Shown here piece by piece: positions 16,924 through 27,542 of a stretch of DNA of 64,000 nt. The stretch covers positions 131,617 through 195,616 of the forward strand of contig JAJEBY010000013.1 in the NCBI GenBank assembly GCA_022822305.1, in the 5' to 3' direction. The stretch comes from Anaerolineae bacterium. GTDB lineage: Bacteria; Chloroflexota; Anaerolineae; Aggregatilineales; Phototrophicaceae. The translations under genes were made by a program, and so were the position numbers. The notes beneath the pieces were generated by a model that was not told the DNA's origin, searched no databases, and was given only the letters and a program-made list of their open reading frames with translations. Positions within the stretch are counted from its first letter, which is position 1. The number at the start of each line of letters is the position of its first letter.

Positions 16924-18864
16924 ATGCCATTCTTGGCGCCCATCGCCTTTGCCGGGCTCGCCATTGCCATTCCGATTCTGCTGCTGTATATGCTGCGGCT
17001 GCGTCGGCGCGAGGTGCTGATATCGAGCACCTTTCTCTGGCGCCAAGTGGTGCAGGATACCGAAGCCAATACACCCTGGCAGCGGCTGCGGCGCAATCTG
17101 CTGCTCTTCCTGCAGTTGCTGATCTTGCTTGCGATGGTGCTTGCCTTGGCGCGCCCCTTCATCACTGTGCCCACGGTCAGCGCCGGCAAAATCGCCTTGC
17201 TGGTTGACGCCTCGGGCAGCATGCGCGCGACCGATCTCGACGGCGCTACGCGTTTCGAAGCCGCCATCGACGAAGCGCAGGGCATCGTCAACAATATGAA
17301 CCCGCAGGATATCATCGCGCTGATACGCGTCGGCGATGTCGCCGAGCCGCTGACATCTTACACCGACGACAAGGTGGAGCTGCGTCACGAATTGACCAAT
17401 ATGCGCGTCAGCCGGGGCCGCGCCGATTGGGATACCGCCTTGACGCTGGCTGCTGCCGGTGGCGCTGGCGCCGAGAATTTCAGCATCGTTATCATTTCGG
17501 ATGGCGGCGTCGGCGAGGCGCGCAGCTTGCCCGCCAATATCCCGCAGCCGATCTATCTGCCGGTCGGGCGCTCGTCGTCCAATGTCGCTATCACCGCGTT
17601 GGCGACGCGCGCGCTGGCCGGGCAACCTCCACAGTTGTTCGCTCAAGTGACCAACTATGGCGATGAACCGGCCGAAATCTCGCTGGTGATCCGCCTCGAT
17701 GATGTACTGCGTTTGTCGCGCAGCGGCACGGTCCCGCCCCGCAGTCAGTTGCCCATCCCCTTCGACGAGCCGATCGCGGAATCCTTTGAGACGCTTTCCG
17801 CCGCCTTGACCTTCGATAACGATGTCGAAGACTTCCTGGAGCTCGACAATCGCGCCTGGACCGTGCGCAGCGAGGCCAGCACCCGCCGCATCTATTATGT
17901 GTCGCAGGGCGGCAATCTGTTTTTGGAGCAAGCGCTGCGCAGCTTGCCCGGCGTACAGACCTTCCGCGGCGATCCTCAGAATCGCGGCTTGCCGGCAGAT
18001 CCATTCGACCTTTACGTATTCAGCGGCTGGCTGCCCAACAGCCTGCCCGATGGCGATATGCTGCTGATAAATCCGCCCCATACGACGTCGATATTCGCCG
18101 TCGGCGGGTCACAGGATGCCACAGATGATGTTGAAGTCATCGCAGGCGAATCGCCGATCACTGCCTTCGTCAACCTGGAAGAGATGAGCTTGTTGCAGTT
18201 TCGCGATATCCGGGCCGACTGGTCGCGGCCGCTGATTCGCGCAGCCGATGGCGACTTGCTGTTGGCCGGCGAGGTGAATGCGCGTCAGGTGGCGATCATG
18301 CCCTTTGACCTGCGCGACTCCAACTTGCCGCTCTTGATCGCCTGGCCGGTGCTGATGGCGAATCTGCTGGATTGGTTTTCGCCATCGGAAATCGTCTCGC
18401 TGCCCAATGGTTTGAGCGTCGGCGACGCGCTGGTGATTCAACTGCCGCTGCTCGCGGATAGCGTCCGCGTCACCGCCCCCGACGGCGCCGTGCACGACTT
18501 GCCGGCTAGTGATCAGACGCTGGTCTTCAGCGATACGCGCCAGCTCGGTTTGTACCAGCTGGAAATCCTGCAGGCGGGCGAGGTGACGCAACGGCAGCAG
18601 TTCGCGGTCAATCTCTTTGCCACGGGCGAAAGCGACATCGCCCCGGTCGCGGAAGGCGATCTGGCGCTGGGCGGGGGCATGGTCGAAGTCGATACGGACG
18701 AGCAATTGGGATTGCGTGAGTTTTGGACCCTGGCGGCGATATTGGCGCTGCTGCTGCTGTTGATCGAGTGGATCGTATACCATCGGCGGCTGCGAGTGCC
18801 GACCCTGCTGGGCAGCGGCGGATCTTCCGGCGGCCTTATTGCGCGTCTTCGCCGAATTGCTTGA
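16924..18864 (+). CDS. BatA-like membrane protein with N-terminal double-TM segment and von Willebrand factor A domain
   Basis: MPFLAPIAFAGLAIAIPILLLYMLRLRRRE... N-terminus; vWA MIDAS context LLVDASGSM; C-terminal TM helix. Confidence 0.8.
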   Translation: MPFLAPIAFAGLAIAIPILLLYMLRLRRREVLISSTFLWRQVVQDTEANTPWQRLRRNLLLFLQLLILLAMVLALARPFITVPTVSAGKIALLVDASGSMRATDLDGATRFEAAIDEAQGIVNNMNPQDIIALIRVGDVAEPLTSYTDDKVELRHELTNMRVSRGRADWDTALTLAAAGGAGAENFSIVIISDGGVGEARSLPANIPQPIYLPVGRSSSNVAITALATRALAGQPPQLFAQVTNYGDEPAEISLVIRLDDVLRLSRSGTVPPRSQLPIPFDEPIAESFETLSAALTFDNDVEDFLELDNRAWTVRSEASTRRIYYVSQGGNLFLEQALRSLPGVQTFRGDPQNRGLPADPFDLYVFSGWLPNSLPDGDMLLINPPHTTSIFAVGGSQDATDDVEVIAGESPITAFVNLEEMSLLQFRDIRADWSRPLIRAADGDLLLAGEVNARQVAIMPFDLRDSNLPLLIAWPVLMANLLDWFSPSEIVSLPNGLSVGDALVIQLPLLADSVRVTAPDGAVHDLPASDQTLVFSDTRQLGLYQLEILQAGEVTQRQQFAVNLFATGESDIAPVAEGDLALGGGMVEVDTDEQLGLREFWTLAAILALLLLLIEWIVYHRRLRVPTLLGSGGSSGGLIARLRRIA

Positions 18865-19762
18865 GTTTGATCACCGATTCGAACGACTTGACATCGCCGT
18901 CAAAGCGGACGTTTTGCAGGTAGACTTGGCTGATCGCAGTCATGGCCGCGAAGTGGCGATTTGTGTCCATCTCAACCAGCCTGCCCAGGATGACCGCGGG
19001 CCGAACCAGCGCCTGGTTGATGCCCGGAAATGCCTCGAGCTGCTTCGCGACCGAATAATGCGGATCGATCAGGATGGAGTCGCGCAGCGTCTCCAGTGTC
19101 TCGCTGCTGCTATCGGATTGGAGATAGGCGATATCGGCCAGCCAGTCTGCCGCGGTGGACTCCTCATCAATGCTTCGCGCCAGCGCGCGCCGGGCACGCG
19201 CGCCAGTAGCCGATGGCCAGGGAATGCGACCCGGCAACAGATACTGCGCAGCTGGCGAGCCGCCCAGGACCAGGGTGCCGTAGACAAATCGCTCACGCCG
19301 GACATGCCTCGATCTTTGTGCCTTGATCTCGCTGACGCCATGTACTGATGCATCATCGGGCAGCGTCTGCTCCAGACGCACGCCTTTTGCGCCAACGAAG
19401 AGCGTGAATGCCTGCCGATACACCGCGGCGGTGAGTATGTCGATCGTCGGCGGCGCCTGATTGTCCTCCGCCGCATGCACGCGCGCCATAGCCCGAACCG
19501 CATCATGCACGCGGCGACCTTGATAACCCGGCACATGACGCGCGGTCAATCGCGACAGGCCGCACCACATGTCCGATCCCACGCTGATAGGATGGGACTG
19601 CAGGCCGCGCGGAGACGGCGTATTGGCTTCAACCAGCCAGACTTCATCAAACTGAGCGCGGGCGCGATCAAACGCGGCGACCACCAGCACGCCGTCCACG
19701 TTGATGACTTGGTCATCGTAGCGTCCGGGATTATCCAGGATTTGAGCTATCGTGGCTTTCAT
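18836..19762 (-). CDS. Hypothetical protein
   Basis: Long ORF with coding-like composition and no motif I recognise. Start set at ATG 19762 (AGGA 8 nt upstream). The 3' end overlaps the convergent vWA gene by 29 nt. Confidence 0.5.
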   Translation of the reverse strand: MKATIAQILDNPGRYDDQVINVDGVLVVAAFDRARAQFDEVWLVEANTPSPRGLQSHPISVGSDMWCGLSRLTARHVPGYQGRRVHDAVRAMARVHAAEDNQAPPTIDILTAAVYRQAFTLFVGAKGVRLEQTLPDDASVHGVSEIKAQRSRHVRRERFVYGTLVLGGSPAAQYLLPGRIPWPSATGARARRALARSIDEESTAADWLADIAYLQSDSSSETLETLRDSILIDPHYSVAKQLEAFPGINQALVRPAVILGRLVEMDTNRHFAAMTAISQVYLQNVRFDGDVKSFESVIKLKQFGEDAQ

Positions 19763-19847
19763 CAGCCATCCTGCTGCGCGACCGACGAGCAAAAGGACGC
19801 GCTTTCGCGCCATTCGAGTACGCCGATTATATCAGCAAACGCCGCGC

Positions 19848-21071
19848 TCAGGAGAAGTATCGGCGCAGTCGGTTGGCCAGCCGTTTGTGCTGGCACTCCA
19901 CAAGCTCAAAGCTGTCGCAGCCGTGAAAGGCCATGAATTCTTCGATGGCCTCGATCAAGCCGCGGCTCAGCGCCGCGCTGTACTTGACGCCCTTTTCCAG
20001 ATAGAGCGCGTGAAGAGTCAGCCGTCTCCGCACACGGTCGACCTTGGGATCAATGCGCCCGACCAGGTCGCAGCCCTGCAGAATCGGCATCACGTAATAG
20101 CCGTAGCGGCGCTTGGCTTTGGGCGTGTAGACTTCGATGGTATATTCGAAATCCCAAAGCATGGCATCGCGCTCGCGATCCCAAAACAGATTGTCAAAGG
20201 GCGAGAGGAAAACAGTCAATTCGGGCTCATGCCTACCAGACTGGATTTCCTCAAGCAGCGGCAGATCATCGCGATGAATGAAGGCGTTTTCCGCCCAGCC
20301 AGCGACCGCGACGGGCAGCGCCTCACCCGATTCTTGCATATCGCGTAGATGATTGGCTGCGCTGCGCTTGTATTGACGATAATAATCGGAGACTTGATTG
20401 GCCGTGGCGATCCCCAGATGCCGCAAGCCGCTGGCGATTGTCCAGCGCCGATAATCGTCCAGCGTCTTGTCCGTGGAGAATTGCCTGCCCGCCAGCACGC
20501 GCTCGCTGAGATCGTAGTAGCGTTGGAAATTAATGCGATGACTGACCATGAGCTCGCCGCGATACAAGAGGTATTCCAAGGCCACCTTAGCCGGCTTCCA
20601 ACTCCACCAGCCGCCCGGTCCGCGGCGCTCGCCTTCGATATCCTTGGACGACAGCGGGCCGCGCTCGCGCACCAATGCCAGCACCGTTTCCACGATTTCG
20701 GGAAAATCCTCGCCCAGCCGCTCGATTTTCCAGCGCGTTTCCAGCGTGTGCCGCTGCGCTATCCAGGGCCGATACCAGGGATAGTTCGCGAAAGGGATTT
20801 GACACATGGCATGCGACCAGCTCTCGAAGAGGAAGCCGTCATCCAGCAGGGCATCGAGATCGGCGGGGTCGTAAACGCCGGCGCGCGCCAGCATGACCAG
20901 GTAGTGGCTGCGCGCGACCACGCTGATGGAATCGAGTTGCAGCAAACCGATGCGCTCGATGATGCGCTTGAGTCGGGAGGGGTCGTCGCTGGCTGGGCGT
21001 TGGTGCAAGCCCTGCTTGTAAACGGCGAGTCGCTTGACGGTTTCGCGGGTGACGGGGATGGGCGCGGTCAT
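19848..21071 (-). CDS. YcaQ/AlkZ-like winged-helix protein (DUF1006; interstrand-crosslink DNA glycosylase family)
   Basis: LAVYKQGL...IIERIGLLQLDSISVVARSHYLVMLAR...FESWSHAMCQIP... resembles the YcaQ family as I recall it. Start set at ATG 21071. Confidence 0.7.
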   Translation of the reverse strand: MTAPIPVTRETVKRLAVYKQGLHQRPASDDPSRLKRIIERIGLLQLDSISVVARSHYLVMLARAGVYDPADLDALLDDGFLFESWSHAMCQIPFANYPWYRPWIAQRHTLETRWKIERLGEDFPEIVETVLALVRERGPLSSKDIEGERRGPGGWWSWKPAKVALEYLLYRGELMVSHRINFQRYYDLSERVLAGRQFSTDKTLDDYRRWTIASGLRHLGIATANQVSDYYRQYKRSAANHLRDMQESGEALPVAVAGWAENAFIHRDDLPLLEEIQSGRHEPELTVFLSPFDNLFWDRERDAMLWDFEYTIEVYTPKAKRRYGYYVMPILQGCDLVGRIDPKVDRVRRRLTLHALYLEKGVKYSAALSRGLIEAIEEFMAFHGCDSFELVECQHKRLANRLRRYFS

Positions 21072-21116
21072 GGCGGGGATTGTAGCATGGGGTGGCAAAA
21101 TCAACCCCCCTCTATA

Positions 21117-21142
21117 TCTCCCCCCATCGCGATGGGGGGAGA
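21117..21142. repeat. Perfect 26-bp palindrome tctccccccatcgcgatggggggaga
   Basis: Read directly from the sequence; lies in the divergent intergenic region between ycaQ-like and the ATPase gene. It shares the 11-mer gatggggggag with 26030-26040. Confidence 0.9.
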
Positions 21143-21346
21143 CTTTGTCGACGTCAGCGTAGTCCGCCATTTTGCCGCCGTCGGAAGAGACTTTTCGGCA
21201 ATTTGGCAATTTGTTGGGTCTTCGGTTGTTGAGGCGCGGGTTGAGGTCAGGGTAGCGTGGATGGGTGAGGTGGTGGCGTCTGGATGGTCGTGTACTGATT
21301 TCACCAGCGAGGAATTGACACGGATCGCATAGGCAATAGCCAGTGA

Positions 21347-21376
21347 TTGAAAGTCAAGCGACAACCGTGCTATGAT
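21347..21376 (+). promoter_or_regulatory. Candidate sigma70-type promoter for the ATPase/PIN-like operon (TTGAAA-N18-TATGAT)
   Basis: Hexamers at 21347-21352 and 21371-21376, about 33 nt upstream of ATG 21409. Confidence 0.4.
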
Positions 21377-21408
21377 TCACCTGCAAGAGTTAGCAGCCCG
21401 TCGGCGAA

Positions 21409-22773
21409 ATGAGCGCTGCGATGTTCAAGCAGATCAGCATGAAAAACTTCAAGTCGTGGCGCGACACCGGCCCCGTGCGCATGGCGCCGCTGACGGGTTT
21501 CTTCGGCGCGAACAGCTCGGGAAAGAGCAGTTTGCTGCAAATGCTGTTGCTGCTGAAGCAGACGGCGGAATCGAAGGATTTGAACTTGGTATTAGAGACG
21601 GGCGCTATGAGAGACGACTATGTCGACCTCGGTACGCCTTTTGAAATCGCTCAAAATGAGTCAACCGAAATGGAAATGGGTTTTGAATGGACATTTGCGC
21701 CCACAAAAGCAAAACCTACGCTGATACGTGTGCCGATTCCCAACCGGCACGAATCCTTAGAAATAGGTGAGATGTCGTTTAAGTCTAAATTACATGTAGA
21801 TACTCAGCGAAATCATGTTTTACAAATGCAATATCGACATCGAGAAGATGTATTGGTGGAATTTAGGCGTGCGGGAAACAATAGATACACGATTGATATT
21901 TCTATATGTGGAGAACATCCCGTGCGCGCGCAAGGTCGCCCGCGAGTGTACATGAAGCCCGAAAAGTGCTACAGCTTTTCGGACGAAGCTTTGCGGTATT
22001 ATCAGTCAACTAGCTTTTTGAATGACTTTGTTCTTCAATTTGAGCGTCAATTTGAGCATATGCATTACTTGGGCCCGCTTCGTCCTTATCCGCAACGCGA
22101 CTATACGTTGATTGGTGGCAGTCCTCAAAGTGTCGGTTTCAAAGGAGAATTTGCGATCCATGCCTTACTGGCTGCGAAAAACCAAAAGGTCTACCGGGAT
22201 GGTAGGCGGCAGTTCAGCAAGCTCGAATCACGCATTGCGCAATGGCTTGTAGAGCTTGAATTGGCAAATGCATTTGAGACGCGTCCGTTGTTCAAGGGCA
22301 GCAACCAATATGCTGTTTGGCTGAGACGTCACTCGGCGAGTAAAGAAGTTCGAATAACTGACATGGGAATCGGAGTCTCACAGGTTTTGCCCGTACTTGT
22401 TCTCTGCTACTATGTGCCTGAAGGTTCGACAATTATCCTTGAACAGCCGGAGTTACACTTGCATCCATCAGTGCAGGCGGGCTTGGCAGATGTCTTCATA
22501 GACTGCATAAAAAATCGAGGATTGCAGATAATATTAGAGAGTCATAGCGAGCACATGCTGCGACGGCTTCAACTTGGTCTAGCGAAGTCTGAGATTGTTC
22601 CCGAAGATACGGCTCTCTATTTCTGTGATATTACGGACGGAGTATCTGAACTCATATCACTTGACGTGGACATGTTTGGTACTATCCACAATTGGCCAGA
22701 CGACTTTTTCGGGGATCTCGCTGGCGACATGGTAGCGGCTTTTGATGCTGGTCTGAAACGCCAAGTCCACTGA
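21409..22773 (+). CDS. ABC/AAA_21-type (SMC-like) ATPase with C-terminal WPDDFF tail (DUF3696-like, from memory)
   Basis: Walker A GANSSGKSS (21505-21531); signature-like MGIGVSQVLP; Walker B and downstream IILEQPELHLHP (22432-22467); H-loop ILESHSEHM; C-terminal GTIHNWPDDFFGD. Start could instead be ATG 21421. Confidence 0.85.
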   Translation: MSAAMFKQISMKNFKSWRDTGPVRMAPLTGFFGANSSGKSSLLQMLLLLKQTAESKDLNLVLETGAMRDDYVDLGTPFEIAQNESTEMEMGFEWTFAPTKAKPTLIRVPIPNRHESLEIGEMSFKSKLHVDTQRNHVLQMQYRHREDVLVEFRRAGNNRYTIDISICGEHPVRAQGRPRVYMKPEKCYSFSDEALRYYQSTSFLNDFVLQFERQFEHMHYLGPLRPYPQRDYTLIGGSPQSVGFKGEFAIHALLAAKNQKVYRDGRRQFSKLESRIAQWLVELELANAFETRPLFKGSNQYAVWLRRHSASKEVRITDMGIGVSQVLPVLVLCYYVPEGSTIILEQPELHLHPSVQAGLADVFIDCIKNRGLQIILESHSEHMLRRLQLGLAKSEIVPEDTALYFCDITDGVSELISLDVDMFGTIHNWPDDFFGDLAGDMVAAFDAGLKRQVH

Positions 22774-22777
22774 ACGC

Positions 22778-23326
22778 ATGACAGCCAAGATAATTGACAC
22801 CAACGTACCGCTTACCGCGGCGGGCCTCAACTCCAGCGCGTCCAAGCGATGTCAGCTTAGCTGTGTTTCGGTTATACAGGCGGTTTTAGCAGGGCAAATG
22901 AGAGTAGTTATTGACACAAACAATGAAGTTTTGCGCGAATACAATCGTCGTATTCATCCAGATTTCAAAGGCTCGCTGGCTGAACAGTTCATGCTTTACA
23001 TGCTCCAGAATCGCACGGTTGCGAGCCGTGTTCACAGTCAGGGGTTGCGATACAACGACACTGAAAGTTATTTTGATTATCCGGACAATGACGATACTTG
23101 GACTTCCGATGTTCAACGCTGCAAGCGCTTTGACCCGGATGACAAGAAATGGGTAGCGCTTGCCTGCGCCTTCAAACGAGAAACTGGCGACGACGCGCCC
23201 ATCGTAAACGCGGCCGATAGATGTTGGCTGGCATTTGAATCACATCTTGAAGCAGCCGGTGTCCAGTTGGAAGTTCTCTGTCGCGACGAGCGAGAGGGAA
23301 GTAGTCCTCACTCCAACACCAGCTGA
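22778..23326 (+). CDS. PIN-like domain protein (putative nuclease partner of the ATPase)
   Basis: Starts 4 nt after the ATPase stop. N-terminal MTAKIIDTNVP (PIN hhDTNV motif); later acidic positions VVIDTNNEVLREY, FDPDDKKWVALACAF, IVNAADRCWLAF. Fold assignment is inference only. The last ~6 codons lie inside the fetB-remnant repeat. Confidence 0.55.
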   Translation: MTAKIIDTNVPLTAAGLNSSASKRCQLSCVSVIQAVLAGQMRVVIDTNNEVLREYNRRIHPDFKGSLAEQFMLYMLQNRTVASRVHSQGLRYNDTESYFDYPDNDDTWTSDVQRCKRFDPDDKKWVALACAFKRETGDDAPIVNAADRCWLAFESHLEAAGVQLEVLCRDEREGSSPHSNTS

Positions 23327-23436
23327 TACGCGGGATTGTAAAACTGCCGGTAGGTCAGCCAGACCGAGCGGTAAACCTGTACGCCGCCTATCAGTAACGC
23401 TATAATTGCAGTGTAGCTGGCGCAGAAGGCAAGCCC
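23308..23436 (-). pseudogene. Orphan 3'-end fragment of a fetB-like permease gene
   Basis: The minus-strand open frame of 42 codons ends ...VWLTYRQFYNPAYQLVLE*, versus ...AWLTYRQFFTPMHQLVLE* in the intact gene at 24094. DNA 23308-23367 matches 24094-24153 at 48/60 positions (hand count). No gene body lies upstream. Confidence 0.65.
23401..23406 (+). promoter_or_regulatory. Perfect TATAAT -10 box 33 nt upstream of the DUF433 gene
   Basis: tataat at 23401-23406; no convincing -35 hexamer (tgtacg at a 17-nt spacing). Confidence 0.25.
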
Positions 23437-23438
23437 TC

Positions 23439-23744
23439 ATGGAAGAAACCATAGAAAGCATCGACCTCATCACCCGCAAGCCCAATGTCCGCGGCGGTCG
23501 ACCCTGTATCAGAGGTACGGGCTTGCGCGTGACTGACATCGTCGTCGCGATGCGTTATCACGGACGTACGCCGGAACAGATTTCGGAGGGCTTTCAGGTA
23601 TCCCTGGCCGGTGTTTACGCTGCTCTTGCCTATTACAACTTACACAAGGATGACGTCGACGCCGATATCGAGAACCAGATAACAAGAGCGCGAGAGCTTA
23701 GGGACAAAGGTGTTGGCAGCCGCAGAACTACGCTTCTACCTTGA
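23439..23744 (+). CDS. DUF433-domain protein (putative antitoxin/HTH)
   Basis: ITRKPNVRGGRPCIRGTGLRVTDIVVAM...GRTPEQISEGFQVSLAGVYAALAYY is the characteristic DUF433 core. Start set at ATG 23439. Confidence 0.8.
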   Translation: MEETIESIDLITRKPNVRGGRPCIRGTGLRVTDIVVAMRYHGRTPEQISEGFQVSLAGVYAALAYYNLHKDDVDADIENQITRARELRDKGVGSRRTTLLP

Positions 23745-24063
23745 CGAGCATTTGGATGTAGAGATCGCGCGCCAACTCAAGCCACGCGGTATTGATGTCA
23801 TTACTGTGCCCGAAGTGAAAAGCTTCGGCGAAGACGATCTGCTTCAATTGCGTCGTTCTATCCGGATGGGACGCGTATTCTGTACCAATGACAGCGACCT
23901 AATCGAAATAGCTAGCGAAGGAATTGAACACACGGGCATTGTATTTGGTCAGCAGGAGAAGCATTTTATCGGTACGTGGGTCAAGTTTTTGATCAAATTG
24001 CATAAAGAGTTTCGACCAAATGAGCTAGCGAATCTTGTCACGTATATCTCCACTGAGGACTGA
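23710..24063 (+). CDS. DUF5615-family PIN-like protein (putative toxin)
   Basis: LRFYLDEHLDVEIARQLKPRGIDVITV...LLQLRRSIRMGRVFCTNDSDL matches the DUF5615/Mut7-C-like pattern as I recall it. GTG start 23710 overlaps the DUF433 gene by 35 nt. Confidence 0.7.
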   Translation: MLAAAELRFYLDEHLDVEIARQLKPRGIDVITVPEVKSFGEDDLLQLRRSIRMGRVFCTNDSDLIEIASEGIEHTGIVFGQQEKHFIGTWVKFLIKLHKEFRPNELANLVTYISTED

Positions 24064-24093
24064 TTATACGATTATCTCGATTCCAAGTATTGG

Positions 24094-24867
24094 TCACTCC
24101 AACACCAACTGATGCATCGGCGTGAAAAACTGCCGATAGGTCAACCAGGCCGCGATCAGCCCGGTGAAGGTCGCCGCGCCCACCAGCATATACATCACTA
24201 TGATTTGCAGCTGCACCGCCTCCAGCGGACTCGCGCCGGCCAGGATCATGCCGGTCATGGCGCCGGGCAGCTTGATCAAACCCACGGTCTTGGTGGTATC
24301 GATGATCGGCGTCAGCGCGCTTTTGATCGTGCGTTGAAACTGCGTCAGCGAGGCTTGCCGCCCGGTCGCGCCCAAGGCCAGCTTGCTCTCGATCAGGTCG
24401 CGCTGGTCGTGGAAGTCGCTGCTCAGCCGCGTGATGACCAAGGTGGCGGTGGTCATGGATGTGCCCAGGATCATGCCGCCGATGGGGATGATGTCTTTGG
24501 GTACGAACGCGAAGACGCCCAGAGCCACCAGCAGCGCCAGCGTCATGGCCGTGCCGGCGCCGATCGCCAGCAGCGAGATCGTCTGCGCGTGGGGCGTCCC
24601 TTTGGCGCGGCGGGCGGTGGTGCGGCCGGCCGTGAGCGTCATGATCAGCAAGATGCCCACGGTGAAGACCGGAGTATCGATCTCGAATACCAACTCCAGC
24701 ACATAGCCGATGGCGATCAGCTGGATGAAACTGCGAAAGGTGGCGATGAACAGGTCTTTTTCAAGATCGGAATCTTGCCAGCGCGAGACCGCGGCCGCGA
24801 TCAAGATGAAGGCGATCGACAGCAGCACGCGCTCCATACCGGCCATATTCAGGAAAAAGTCGGGCAT
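24094..24867 (-). CDS. fetB: FetB/YbbM-family (UPF0014) ABC-transporter permease
   Basis: Multi-TM protein with ...TVGLIKLPGAMTGMILAGASPLEAVQLQIIVMYML... typical of the family. Start at ATG 24867, preceded by GGGAGG. Confidence 0.75.
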   Translation of the reverse strand: MPDFFLNMAGMERVLLSIAFILIAAAVSRWQDSDLEKDLFIATFRSFIQLIAIGYVLELVFEIDTPVFTVGILLIMTLTAGRTTARRAKGTPHAQTISLLAIGAGTAMTLALLVALGVFAFVPKDIIPIGGMILGTSMTTATLVITRLSSDFHDQRDLIESKLALGATGRQASLTQFQRTIKSALTPIIDTTKTVGLIKLPGAMTGMILAGASPLEAVQLQIIVMYMLVGAATFTGLIAAWLTYRQFFTPMHQLVLE

Positions 24868-24884
24868 TTCAGCCTCCCGTTGAT

Positions 24885-25418
24885 TCACCAGCTCAATGTC
24901 GGATTCTTGAACGGCGCCAGCGCCATGATGACAGCGTGCGCATAATAGGCTTCGCGGTCGATGACGTCGTCCGTGAGCAACCCGATGGCGCCGCTGGATT
25001 GCTTGGAATTCTCGCGTCCGAAGACCTGGTCATCAGCGTGGCCGACCTCCATGCCCGCGCGCACCAGCGATGCCACTTCTTCCGGCAGATAAAAGACGGC
25101 GGTCTGTCCGCGGCCGATGCGTCCGTTTCGACCGATGATATGTACCCAGGCGAAGCAGGTCATGCCCAGCGCGGAGTCTTCGATGCCGCCTTCAATGCCC
25201 AGCCAATAATCGCTCTCGGGATGCCGGGCACGGGCATTCTCCGCGCGATTGCGGGCGCCGGTCATTGTCTCGGCCCGTGACGTCGGCTGGTCAGGGACAC
25301 CTGAAGCGACTGAGACGCCGACAACTTGAAAGTCGTCATTGGGAAAGAGACGCTCGAAGCCGATACCCGCGGCGGCAAGCTTGACCGGATTATGGGAGGC
25401 GACGGTGATCCTGGGCAT
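24885..25418 (-). CDS. yjjX: Inosine/xanthosine triphosphatase (YjjX, DUF84 family)
   Basis: ITVASHNPVKLAAAGIGFERLF...VSVASGVPDQP...TGARNRA...WLGIEGGI pattern. Confidence 0.75.
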   Translation of the reverse strand: MPRITVASHNPVKLAAAGIGFERLFPNDDFQVVGVSVASGVPDQPTSRAETMTGARNRAENARARHPESDYWLGIEGGIEDSALGMTCFAWVHIIGRNGRIGRGQTAVFYLPEEVASLVRAGMEVGHADDQVFGRENSKQSSGAIGLLTDDVIDREAYYAHAVIMALAPFKNPTLSW

Positions 25419-25523
25419 TTGTCCTCGCGCTGGCGGATTTCCAACTGCAATGTAAACGGTACTGTAACAAATTCCCCACCGCGTCCGTAGACCTGTGCGA
25501 TAAATCCCCCAACTGATACACTA

Positions 25524-25982
25524 ATGCCGCATTTGCAGGAGGAGAACGCCGTGCTGGGCGATGCCCTGACCGACATCCAGATTCTTAAAGCGGACAGATC
25601 CGATCTCGACGAGCTCTCGGATTTCATCGTGCCTTTCGTCGACAGCGGCGATCTTTTGCCGCGCACCTTTGACGAGTTGGAAGATCTGCTGGAAACCCTG
25701 TTCATCGCGCGCCTCAACGGCCATATCGTGGGTTGCGCGGCGCTGGAAATCTACAACAGGAAATTGTGCGAGATTCGCAGCCTGGCTGTCGATCCGTCCG
25801 CGCAAGGTTTGGGCATCGGCAAGAAACTGGTGATCGCCTGCGTCGAATTGGCGGAGCAGCGCGGCATCTACGAGATCATGGCTATCAGCGCGGCGGAAGA
25901 CTTCTTCAAATCTTGCGGCTTCGACTTCACGCTGCCCAACCTCAAGAAGGCATTCTTTCTGCAGACGCGCGATACCATGTGA
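25524..25982 (+). CDS. GNAT N-acetyltransferase (ArgA-like small acetyltransferase)
   Basis: Acetyl-CoA motif A context IRSLAVDPSAQGLGIGKKLVIACVELAEQRG. Confidence 0.8.
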   Translation: MPHLQEENAVLGDALTDIQILKADRSDLDELSDFIVPFVDSGDLLPRTFDELEDLLETLFIARLNGHIVGCAALEIYNRKLCEIRSLAVDPSAQGLGIGKKLVIACVELAEQRGIYEIMAISAAEDFFKSCGFDFTLPNLKKAFFLQTRDTM

Positions 25983-26066
25983 GCACAGACAAATCCTCAT
26001 TTGGCGCTGGCGATGACTCCTTTTCCACATGATGGGGGGAGGCCTGGGGAAGGGGAGTATTCTCCC

Positions 26067-26801
26067 ATGAAAATCGATGTCCTGACGCTTTTCCCCGTGA
26101 TGTTCGAGCCGATCATGTCGGCAAGCATGATGTGGAAGGCGCGCGATCGCGGCTTGCTCGATTTCCGCGTCCACGATATCCGCGATTATGCCTTGGACAA
26201 ACATCGGCAGGTGGACGACGCGCCCTATGGCGGCGGCGGCGGCATGATCCTCAAGCCCGATGTGCTGGTGCGGGCGATCGAATCTATCCGACCGACGGCG
26301 GATACGCCGGTGGTGCTGATGTCGCCGCAAGGCCGCTTGCTGACGCACCGCGTCGCACAGGAGTTATCGCGGCGGCCGCATCTGGTTCTGGTCTGCGGTC
26401 ACTACGAGGGCGTCGATGAACGCGTTCGCAACCTCGCCATCAGTGACGAAATCAGCATCGGCGATTACGTGCTGACCGGCGGCGAGCTGGCGGCGCTGGT
26501 GGTGATTGACGCCGCTGTGCGGCTGATCCCCGGCGTATTGGGCGCGGAGGACGCGCAAGAACGCGATAGCCACGCCCAGGGCTTGCTCGAAGGACCGCAT
26601 TATACGCGGCCGGCGGAATTCCGCGGCTTGGGCGTTCCCGATGTCTTGACCAGCGGACATCATGCTGAGGTCGAGCGCTGGAGGCGTCAGCAGGCGCTGA
26701 AACGCACCTGGCGGCAGCGGCCCGATCTGTTGGCGCAAGCCGACCTAAGCGACGATGACAAAGCCTATTTGGCGCAATTGATGGATGAAGCCGGCGATTG
26801 A
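26067..26801 (+). CDS. trmD: tRNA (guanine37-N1)-methyltransferase
   Basis: [16 protein letters not shown]...[28 protein letters not shown]...[11 protein letters not shown]...[20 protein letters not shown]. Start set at ATG 26067. Confidence 0.92.
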
Positions 26802-27542
26802 CTAGTCAGCCTGGTGCAGTCCGGCTTGATCGCCCTCCGCGAAAGCCAGCGCGCGTCTGTCGCCCGTGAGCGGATCAAGCATCGCTTCCACCGTGTCTTC
26901 GCGGATGACGCGACCCTCATCGAGCAACAAGACCCGACTGCCGATGCGCCGCGCCTGCTCAATCGAATGCGAGACCCAGATCATCGTCAGGTCGGTTTCC
27001 TGGCGCAGCCGCAGCAGCGACTCCTCGACGCGGCCGGTGGCGATGGGATCCAAAGCCGATGTCGGCTCGTCCAGTAACAGCAGCGAGGGTTCGAGCGCCA
27101 GCGCCCGGGCAATGGCCAGGCGCTGTTCCTGACCGCCCGAGAGCTTGCTCGCCGGCTGGTCTATCAAGTCTTCCTCCAGCGAGATTTGTCGCATCAAGTC
27201 GAGAATCTCCCCGCGCGAAATCTCTCTGCCCTGCAAAGCCAGGCCAAAGGCGATGTTGTCCGCCACGCTGCCCTCGAACGCGGCCGTCTTCTGAAATATC
27301 ATGCCCACGCGGCAGCGCAATTCGGAAATCGGCAGGTCGAAGACCGATTGGCCATCAAGATGGATGCTGCCCGCGTCAATATCGTTCAGCCGATTGACGC
27401 AGCGCAGCAGAGAACTCTTGCCGCTGCCGCTGGGCCCGATCACGACCAGCAATTCGCCAGCCTCCAGCTCGAGGTCGATATCGCGCAGCACTGGCTTTCC
27501 GCCGCGCGTGAGTTGCAGTTCACTGATGCTCAGTTTGGACAC
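26802..27542 (-). CDS. ABC transporter ATP-binding protein (PstB/FetA-like)
   Basis: Walker A GPSGSGKSS, signature LSGGQEQR, Walker B LLLLDEPTSALD, H-loop WVSHS. Its stop abuts the trmD stop. Confidence 0.88.
   Translation of the reverse strand: MSKLSISELQLTRGGKPVLRDIDLELEAGELLVVIGPSGSGKSSLLRCVNRLNDIDAGSIHLDGQSVFDLPISELRCRVGMIFQKTAAFEGSVADNIAFGLALQGREISRGEILDLMRQISLEEDLIDQPASKLSGGQEQRLAIARALALEPSLLLLDEPTSALDPIATGRVEESLLRLRQETDLTMIWVSHSIEQARRIGSRVLLLDEGRVIREDTVEAMLDPLTGDRRALAFAEGDQAGLHQAD

Follow-up and report, generated by a model that had tools for sequence, protein, structure and literature searches.

A putative HEC-03 anti-phage gene pair, encoding an ABC ATPase and a divergent PIN-like protein, in a fixed genomic slot of Chloroflexota

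An ATPase gene and a PIN-like gene in tandem

A 64,000-nucleotide stretch of contig JAJEBY010000013.1 from an Anaerolineae bacterium (assembly GCA_022822305.1, positions 131,617 to 195,616 of the forward strand; hereafter the window) carries two adjacent genes that, judged by their protein sequences, belong to HEC-03, an anti-phage system that is already catalogued, and so would not constitute a new defence system. All features of the pair lie on the forward strand. The upstream gene (21409-22773) encodes a 454-residue ABC ATPase and ends in a TGA at 22771-22773; the downstream open reading frame (22778-23326) encodes a 182-residue PIN-like protein with the N terminus MTAKIIDTNVP. Four nucleotides separate the ATPase stop codon from the PIN ATG at 22778, and the PIN gene is translationally coupled to the ATPase gene across this gap. 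A first-pass annotation made from the letters alone had described the two genes with these lengths, this gap, this N terminus and the ATPase motifs discussed below, all of which lie where it placed them. Neither gene is a chance open reading frame, since each has dozens of homologues and the adjacency of the two is conserved. ATPase homologues align from Met5 onwards, and because this residue is shared by at least 95% of the aligned sequences, the true start may be the ATG at 21421, which would give a protein of 450 residues and shift the residue numbers used here by 4.

The pair is AT-rich relative to its surroundings, as had been noticed at the outset, with a GC content of ~0.47 against ~0.61 in the flanks. 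A sigma-70-like site, TTGAAA-18 nt-TG-TATGAT, lies at 21347-21376, 33 nucleotides 5' of the ATPase start; it matches 10 of 12 positions and has an extended -10 TG. The suggestion that the pair has its own promoter is thus backed by a site at the expected place, but not by its rarity: sigma-70-like sites in the region are no more numerous than in shuffled sequence (2 found versus 3.0 expected), for which reason we regard promoter function at 21347-21376 as no more than plausible. The spacer 5' of the ATPase gene diverges along with the cassette between close relatives, which fits a cassette that brings its own promoter.

Assignment to HEC-03

Both window proteins match the HEC-03 family profiles over their full length. 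Against PADLOC-DB v2, the ATPase aligned to the HEC-03 ATPase model PDLC04148 with an E-value of 1.7e-121 (residues 5-453 on positions 1-453 of 458), and the PIN-like protein aligned to PDLC04147 with an E-value of 4.8e-20 (residues 4-170 on positions 3-153 of 159); no other PADLOC model matched the PIN-like protein. HEC-03, short for 'Hma-embedded candidate 03', was described as an ABC ATPase accompanied by a VapC-like PIN protein (Payne et al., bioRxiv 10.1101/2024.01.29.577857). In the same preprint, HEC-03 from Pseudomonas cichorii expressed in E. coli reduced plaque formation by orders of magnitude for at least two phages; this protection needed both genes, and induction with isopropyl β-D-thiogalactoside (IPTG) was toxic. 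We took the sequences of these tested proteins from Table S2 of Payne et al. and compared them with the window proteins by BLASTP, obtaining 38% identity for the ATPase (WP_025259138.1, E = 1e-89) and 33% for the PIN-like protein (WP_025259137.1, E = 8e-20). The gene order of the two pairs is identical, with the ATPase first.

We assign the window pair to HEC-03 because full-length PADLOC matches and BLASTP homology to the validated pair come together with the same gene order, and the two pairs also share the same catalytic-type residues. The proposal that this is a defence module accordingly gains the backing of homology to an experimentally validated system; the description of the pairing as uncharacterised has to be dropped, as it is listed in PADLOC-DB v2 as HEC-03 and the P. 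cichorii homologue was validated in 2024. A standard PADLOC run would label the window pair HEC-03. In that database the 159-position PIN model is named 'HEC-03A' and the 458-position ATPase model 'HEC-03B', the reverse of the naming in the preprint.

The window pair also differs from the tested one in several respects. It comes from another phylum, its relatives being Chloroflexota-type metagenome-assembled genomes (MAGs), and its ATPase belongs to a separate subclade. Its genes are separated by the 4-nucleotide gap, whereas those of the tested pair overlap by 14 nucleotides. Finally, it occupies a fixed slot among housekeeping genes and is not embedded in an Hma system: its flanks in the window encode an AlkZ-like glycosylase and a UPF0014 membrane protein.

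Conserved motifs and fast-evolving regions of the ATPase

The first-pass annotation had classed the upstream protein as an ABC/AAA_21-type ATPase with a DUF3696 region, and Pfam agreed, with matches to AAA_15 (1.6e-23), AAA_21 (5.5e-22) and a C-terminal DUF3696 (3.9e-9). The only solved structure that matched the protein by sequence was the OLD-family nuclease 6p74 (E = 3e-4). We assessed motif conservation over 58 aligned family members (57 at the tail positions). The Walker A motif GANSSGKSS (residues 33-41, 21505-21531), which contains Lys39, has G33, N35, S36, G38 and K39 invariant in 58/58, and the same holds for G222, P223 and R225 in a YLGPLR loop (22066-22083). The signature-like loop DMGIGVSQ (22360-22383, with GIGVSQ at residues 320-325) keeps D318, G320, G322, S324 and Q325 in 58/58 and presents GxG where ABC proteins have SGG. 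Downstream, the H-loop ESHSEH (residues 377-382, 22537-22554) is invariant at E377, H379, S380 and E381 (58/58), and the C-terminal DUF3696 tail (residues 397-441, 22597-22731) contains the segment NWPDDFFGD, with WPDDFF at residues 429-434 and with N428, P430, F433 and G435 present in 57/57. This tail is the predicted docking site of the PIN-like protein.

The Walker B and D-loop segment IILEQPELHLHP (residues 342-353, 22432-22467) is unusual in carrying an E345-Q346 dyad where D-E is the rule. Conservation here is again close to complete (E345, P347 and H350-L-H-P in 58/58, E348 in 57/58, Q346 in 56/58), such that Gln occupies the usual catalytic-Glu position in 56 of the 58 family members. 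Engineered E-to-Q changes in other ABC ATPases trap the ATP-bound state. A Gln at this position suggests slow hydrolysis, and the protein may be an ATP-binding switch.

Conservation differs sharply between regions. Among 39 Chloroflexota alleles, mean pairwise identity was 0.81-0.87 in the catalytic lobes, 0.47-0.52 in an insert region (residues 63-211, 21595-22041), 0.56 in the DUF3696 tail and 0.38-0.65 in the PIN-like protein. This comparison identifies the insert region, the DUF3696 tail and the PIN-like protein as the fast-evolving parts of HEC-03; following Payne et al., the hypervariable insert would be the part of the ATPase that senses the trigger.

Partial relatives of the ATPase are encoded by phages as well. 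Klebsiella phages (OK490394.1, 8445-9125) and a P2-like phage hotspot fragment (AM157364.1, 1188-1832) matched the C-terminal half alone, over residues 208-434 at 32-33% identity, and these matches probably represent other DUF3696-type ATPase systems on prophages.

A divergent PIN-like protein with a conserved acidic site

An AlphaFold2 model of the 182-residue protein has a mean predicted local distance difference test score (pLDDT) of 92.9 and shows a single domain of alternating beta/alpha topology. Its top Foldseek matches in the PDB are PIN/NYN domains (SMG6, EST1A, Nmd4, PAE0151, VapC and PRORP). Six conserved acidic residues mark out a putative active-site span (22796-23218): D7 (codon 22796-22798), D46 (22913-22915), E54 (22937-22939), D119 (23132-23134), D122 (23141-23143) and D147 (23216-23218). 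Each of them is acidic in 59-60 of 60 sequences drawn from many phyla, the tested protein included. In the model they fall after beta1, after beta2, in helix 3, at the start of the helix spanning residues 120-136 and after beta4, positions that we take to be those of the PIN D-E-D-D set, whose layout is established (Senissar et al. 2017, cited in PMC12065111). From this conservation the protein looks catalytically live. It is a divergent PIN-like protein, in agreement with the published assignment.

The protein also carries an insertion of ~30 residues (89-118), and no NCBIfam model matched it. Three cysteines outside the canonical PIN site, C25 and C29 (22850-22864) and C168 (23279-23281), are conserved across phyla in 60/60, 56/60 and 58/60 sequences, respectively; they might coordinate a metal or take part in a redox-sensitive contact.

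Conserved adjacency and exchange of alleles in a fixed slot

A scan of one genome per species returned 62 loci encoding relatives of the PIN-like protein (numbered here with the prefix L), spread over at least eight phyla, including Chloroflexota, Myxococcota, Planctomycetota, Bacteroidota, Desulfobacterota, Deferribacterota, Proteobacteria, Verrucomicrobiota and others. In 59 of the 62, the gene immediately 5' of the PIN gene and co-oriented with it encodes an ATPase homologue. Of the other three loci, two are cut off by the end of a contig and one is what remains after a deletion. The two genes are therefore conserved neighbours across genomes, a point that the first-pass annotation had proposed to check. 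Among the sampled loci, HmaB and HmaC matched once each, and L054, where the upstream gene encodes a DNA adenine methylase, is most likely the Hma-embedded locus.

The nearest relatives of the window pair come from MAGs of Phototrophicaceae, Aggregatilineales and Anaerolineae, and ~35 such genomes hold the pair in the same slot as the window. In Chloroflexota the pair always occupies this slot between the AlkZ-like gene and the UPF0014 membrane gene, as seen at 19848-27542 in the window and at loci L001-L041, L044 and L063-L065. Its gene order is a vWA protein, a 325-residue open reading frame, the AlkZ-like glycosylase (encoded on the strand opposite to the ATPase gene), the pair, sometimes a toxin-antitoxin (TA) pair, and the UPF0014 membrane protein, beyond which follow an NTPase, a GNAT protein, TrmD and an ABC ATPase. 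A metagenome scan with the flanking membrane gene revealed no clean empty slot: the pair was present in all close relatives, and the distant ones were without the entire neighbourhood.

Within this slot the pair has a history of its own. Distances between pairs correlated with distances between their flanks at a Spearman coefficient of 0.21. At L002 and L014 the flank proteins differ by 3.9% and the pair by 38.6%, and DNA identity drops from ~96% to 55-65% exactly across the cassette and its upstream spacer. The reverse holds for L016 and L017, whose cassettes are 94-98% identical and whose flanks are 70-80% identical. L011 and L013 diverge mainly in the middle of the ATPase, in the insert region. 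Pair GC is below flank GC in 52 of 53 loci. At L041 (7556-8192), the last 64 PIN codons (109-172) are all that remains, 445 bp from AlkZ, which indicates a deletion of the ATPase gene and the PIN N terminus and hence that the pair is dispensable. At L039 (8001-8503) the PIN gene is split over two reading frames, owing either to a true frameshift or to a fault in the assembly. Exchange and diversification of alleles at one fixed position is a pattern that suits an arms-race gene more than a housekeeping gene, and the comparison extends HEC-03 to a Chloroflexota lineage in which the locus is fixed and the alleles are exchangeable.

An RNA ligase gene in a sister subclade

In 12 of the 20 non-Chloroflexota loci, a gene for an ATP-dependent RNA ligase (Pfam RNA_ligase PF09414, E = 1e-31) lies directly 3' of the PIN gene. 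Ligase genes are found at L042 (734-1429), L045, L047, L049-L053, L055, L057, L058 and L062, and, on two plasmids, at L143 (6934-7635) and L144 (8930-9622); the ligase-bearing HEC-03 loci form one ATPase subclade. These plasmid copies of the triad lie on a conjugative Aeromonas plasmid (pAsa9-like; NZ_CP085535.1, 31109-33737), where it sits among AbiEii, Hok/Gef and GASH genes, and on a mobilizable Azotobacter plasmid. RefSeq annotates its members as a DUF3696 protein, a 177-residue hypothetical protein and an RNA ligase family protein, and the 177-residue middle protein is a PIN homologue. All nucleotidyl-transferase motifs of the ligase are intact. The window holds no ligase gene.

Cleavage by metal-dependent PIN nucleases yields 3'-OH and 5'-phosphate termini, and this type of ligase seals such ends. 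The triad thereby points to an RNA target and to reversible damage, suggesting that RNA is what the PIN-like protein cleaves and that the break can be rejoined. Matelska et al. 2017 cite a precedent for the idea that, in operons with an ATPase, a ligase counteracts PIN or HNH nucleases. The HEC-03 preprint of Payne et al. makes no mention of a ligase, and the operon-encoded enzyme suggests a testable reversible-damage mechanism for HEC-03.

Comparison with other defence systems

PARIS, Septu and Gabija resemble the window pair in that an AAA_15/AAA_21-type ABC ATPase acts with a small nuclease, either as a separate partner or as a fusion. In these systems a dimer of the ATPase holds the effector asymmetrically through its C-terminal parts (summarised in PMC12065111), but the effector is a Toprim (AriB, GajA) or HNH (PtuB) protein rather than a PIN protein. 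The window ATPase matched AriA (9e-26, residues 305-384) and GajA (1e-9) in part, with similarity confined to the conserved lobes. We rejected PARIS, as the AriA match is partial and the partner is PIN-like, not Toprim; Septu, as the NCBIfam PtuA model gave an E-value of 0.0022 and 17 bits against a cut-off of 500 and the pair has no HNH domain; and Gabija on the type of effector and partner, there being no helicase partner in the window pair. VapBC shares a small VapC-like PIN effector with conserved acidic residues. The window PIN-like protein differs from VapC in its ~30-residue insertion and its three conserved cysteines, and VapBC was rejected because the upstream gene encodes a 454-residue ABC ATPase, not a small DNA-binding VapB antitoxin.

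PrrC and RloC are alike in having an ABC ATPase that controls an RNase in phage defence. RNA ligation as a counter-reaction to anticodon nucleases, carried out by T4 Pnk/Rnl, is known from phage RNA repair (PMC2610378), and the ligase-bearing HEC-03 subclade fits this damage-and-repair logic. In PrrC and RloC, however, nuclease and ATPase form one fusion protein, the nuclease is of a type other than PIN, and the ligase is a phage enzyme, whereas the ligase of the HEC-03 subclade is part of the defence operon; no ligase gene is present in the window.

The nearest other family to the window ATPase is NsnB of the Menshen system (NsnA-NsnB-NsnC; Millman et al. 2022). The PADLOC NsnB model matched with an E-value of 6.1e-61 and the HEC-03 model with twice the bits, and this much better score suggests that HEC-03 ATPases lie outside the NsnB radiation. 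NsnB is an ABC ATPase with a DUF3696 tail that has E-N for the Walker B D-E, Arg for the Q-loop Gln and GxG for SGG (PMC12065111). The window ATPase has a DUF3696 tail too, and its E-Q dyad, Arg loop and GxG match the NsnB substitutions. Going by motif order rather than by a structural alignment, Arg225 of YLGPLR would be the counterpart of the NsnB Arg that replaces the ABC Q-loop glutamine. The HEC-03 ATPase is thus linked to Menshen NsnB through shared unusual motifs, a connection between HEC-03 and Menshen that neither the HEC-03 preprint nor PMC12065111 makes. AlphaFold 3 predicts that two DUF3696 tails clamp the N-terminal, catalytically dead PIN-like domain of NsnC (PMC12065111), and by analogy with these models of Menshen NsnB4-NsnC2 the tail of the window ATPase may dock the PIN-like protein.

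The partners set the two systems apart. The window PIN-like protein stands alone, without the C-terminal nuclease domain of NsnC; the HEC-03 PIN keeps acidic residues that are lost in all 35 Menshen inPIN families; and the window protein did not match the PADLOC NsnC models at E-values up to 0.1. NsnA (ParB-DUF262 plus ParBDB) is absent upstream of the pair in the window, and the upstream neighbours at ten other loci did not include a DUF262 gene.

Proposed mechanism and alternative explanations

We estimate at roughly 80% the probability that the locus is a two-gene HEC-03-type anti-phage system working by the mechanism proposed here. ATPase oligomers would hold the PIN-like protein between paired DUF3696 tails in an inactive state, and a phage-derived trigger would be sensed through the fast-evolving insert region. 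ATP binding would then cause a conformational change, with the E-Q Walker B dyad favouring binding over rapid hydrolysis. The PIN-like protein, released or activated, would cleave RNA, probably structured RNA such as tRNA or rRNA, and translation and phage production would stop. A literature search found no mechanistic study of HEC-03. The regional conservation, in which the catalytic lobes are conserved and the insert, tail and PIN evolve fast, fits the proposed mechanism, and low GC, allele swaps in the slot and homologues that conjugative plasmids carry next to AbiE, Hok/Gef and GASH genes read as the signature of an arms race.

Several observations weigh against this proposal. The phage-protection data belong to the P. 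cichorii homologue, and the window proteins are only 33-38% identical to that tested pair. Docking of the PIN-like protein on the tail relies on analogy with predictions for Menshen. The first-pass annotation had called the second protein PIN-type; the conserved acidic residues and the identity of the top Foldseek matches favour that view, but none of these structural matches to the PDB had an E-value below 1e-3 and their template modelling (TM) scores were 0.36-0.50, the Pfam PIN_3 match stayed below threshold (E = 0.0015, 19.8 bits against a cut-off of 27), and hmmsearch with the PIN family profile against PDB sequences returned nothing meaningful. PIN_3 is the sole Pfam family to recur in the PIN family, in 17 of 45 members, with every match sub-threshold. 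This direct evidence for the fold is weak, which is why we speak of a divergent PIN-like protein. Some PIN-like nucleases, moreover, cut DNA. As for genomic context, the pair was present in 3/3 close relatives reached via the flanking membrane gene instead of via the PIN-like protein, and presence in all three is unusual for an accessory defence gene. Its surroundings in the window are genes of housekeeping and ordinary metabolism. The 'defence islet' initially proposed is accordingly right as to a small low-GC islet with a TA pair beside it, but the islet occupies a fixed slot between housekeeping genes, where the TA pair supplies the sole further accessory genes, and is not a defence island.

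Part of the same evidence could be read as pointing to addiction. If the pair were a TA-like module, the PIN-like protein would be a VapC-like toxin neutralised by the ATPase, and the genes would be kept by post-segregational killing. The PIN-like protein does resemble VapC, the tested homologue was toxic on induction, the pair adjoins another TA pair and is retained in the slot in every close relative sampled, and the Aeromonas plasmid copy lies beside Hok/Gef and AbiEii toxins. Yet the tested homologue protects from phages and needs both genes to do so, the ATPase is unrelated to VapB and has invariant catalytic motifs that a passive antitoxin would not require, and at L041 a single deletion removed the ATPase together with most of the PIN gene. 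We consider a pure addiction role improbable, and TA and defence roles are in any case not mutually exclusive. The similarity to NsnB, which extends to the DUF3696 tail and the motif substitutions, together with the PIN-like domain at the start of NsnC, would also be expected of a reduced Menshen system, that is, an NsnB-NsnC pair that has lost NsnA and is inactive or uses a sensor encoded elsewhere. Such a derivation is very unlikely, given that no ParB-DUF262 gene is adjacent to the pair in the window or upstream in the ten other loci, that the PIN-like protein matches the HEC-03 model only, keeps its acidic residues and is without a C-terminal effector domain, and that the two-gene form of P. 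cichorii works alone in E. coli.

Equally remote is the idea that the pair has been domesticated in this Chloroflexota lineage as a housekeeping complex for RNA processing or quality control. It would account for the fixed place between conserved genes, including those for TrmD and the NTPase, in ~35 genomes, for the presence of the pair in all three relatives found through the membrane gene, and for the link of the other subclade to RNA ligase. A housekeeping complex sits poorly, however, with a GC content that stays ~9-12 points under the flanks, with hypervariable non-catalytic regions, with a pair phylogeny decoupled from that of the flanks, with cassette replacement and recent transfer, with the deletion at L041 and the split PIN reading frame at L039, and with a patchy phyletic distribution that includes plasmids.

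A broader and more tentative proposal, which we think possible though somewhat unlikely, is that HEC-03 and Menshen are two forms of one ancestral module in which a DUF3696-tailed ABC ATPase clamps a PIN domain. HEC-03 would be the form without a sensor, with a PIN that is still catalytic; its ligase subclade would run a reversible, cut-and-reseal RNA immunity and not suicide; and the Chloroflexota clade would be a ligase-less branch confined to one slot and subject to allele swapping. The links that make up this proposal are absent from the HEC-03 and Menshen papers examined.

Neighbouring genes in the window

Immediately downstream of the pair, on the forward strand, a TA-type pair (23406-24063) shares the low-GC islet without being part of HEC-03. 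It consists of a DUF433 gene (23406-23744, E = 1.3e-15) and a DUF5615/PIN-like gene (23710-24063, E = 1.3e-9) that overlap by 35 nucleotides, with a GC content of 0.51-0.54, and the TA-like neighbour reported in the first-pass annotation is therefore real. Since no more than 8-9 of the slot loci in Chloroflexota have it, it is a variable passenger distinct from HEC-03.

Elsewhere in the 64-kb window we found no tRNA genes. PADLOC models matched a few further genes: an ordinary ABC-transporter ATPase (26805-27542) matched mad3 (4e-33), mad8 and AriA, and additional matches to mad2, mad6 and PD-T4-6 had E-values of 1e-11 to 1e-20. We rejected the mad3 and mad8 matches as defence genes, since they are generic matches to the ABC-transporter ATPase, a case which shows that generic ABC domains can mimic defence matches; a subtilase match was likewise set aside as an ordinary S8 peptidase. 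Lastly, the 325-residue open reading frame of the slot (18836-19813, reverse strand), to which no family was assigned, keeps the same place in 32 related loci, where an identity of only 45-50% makes it much more divergent than its neighbours.

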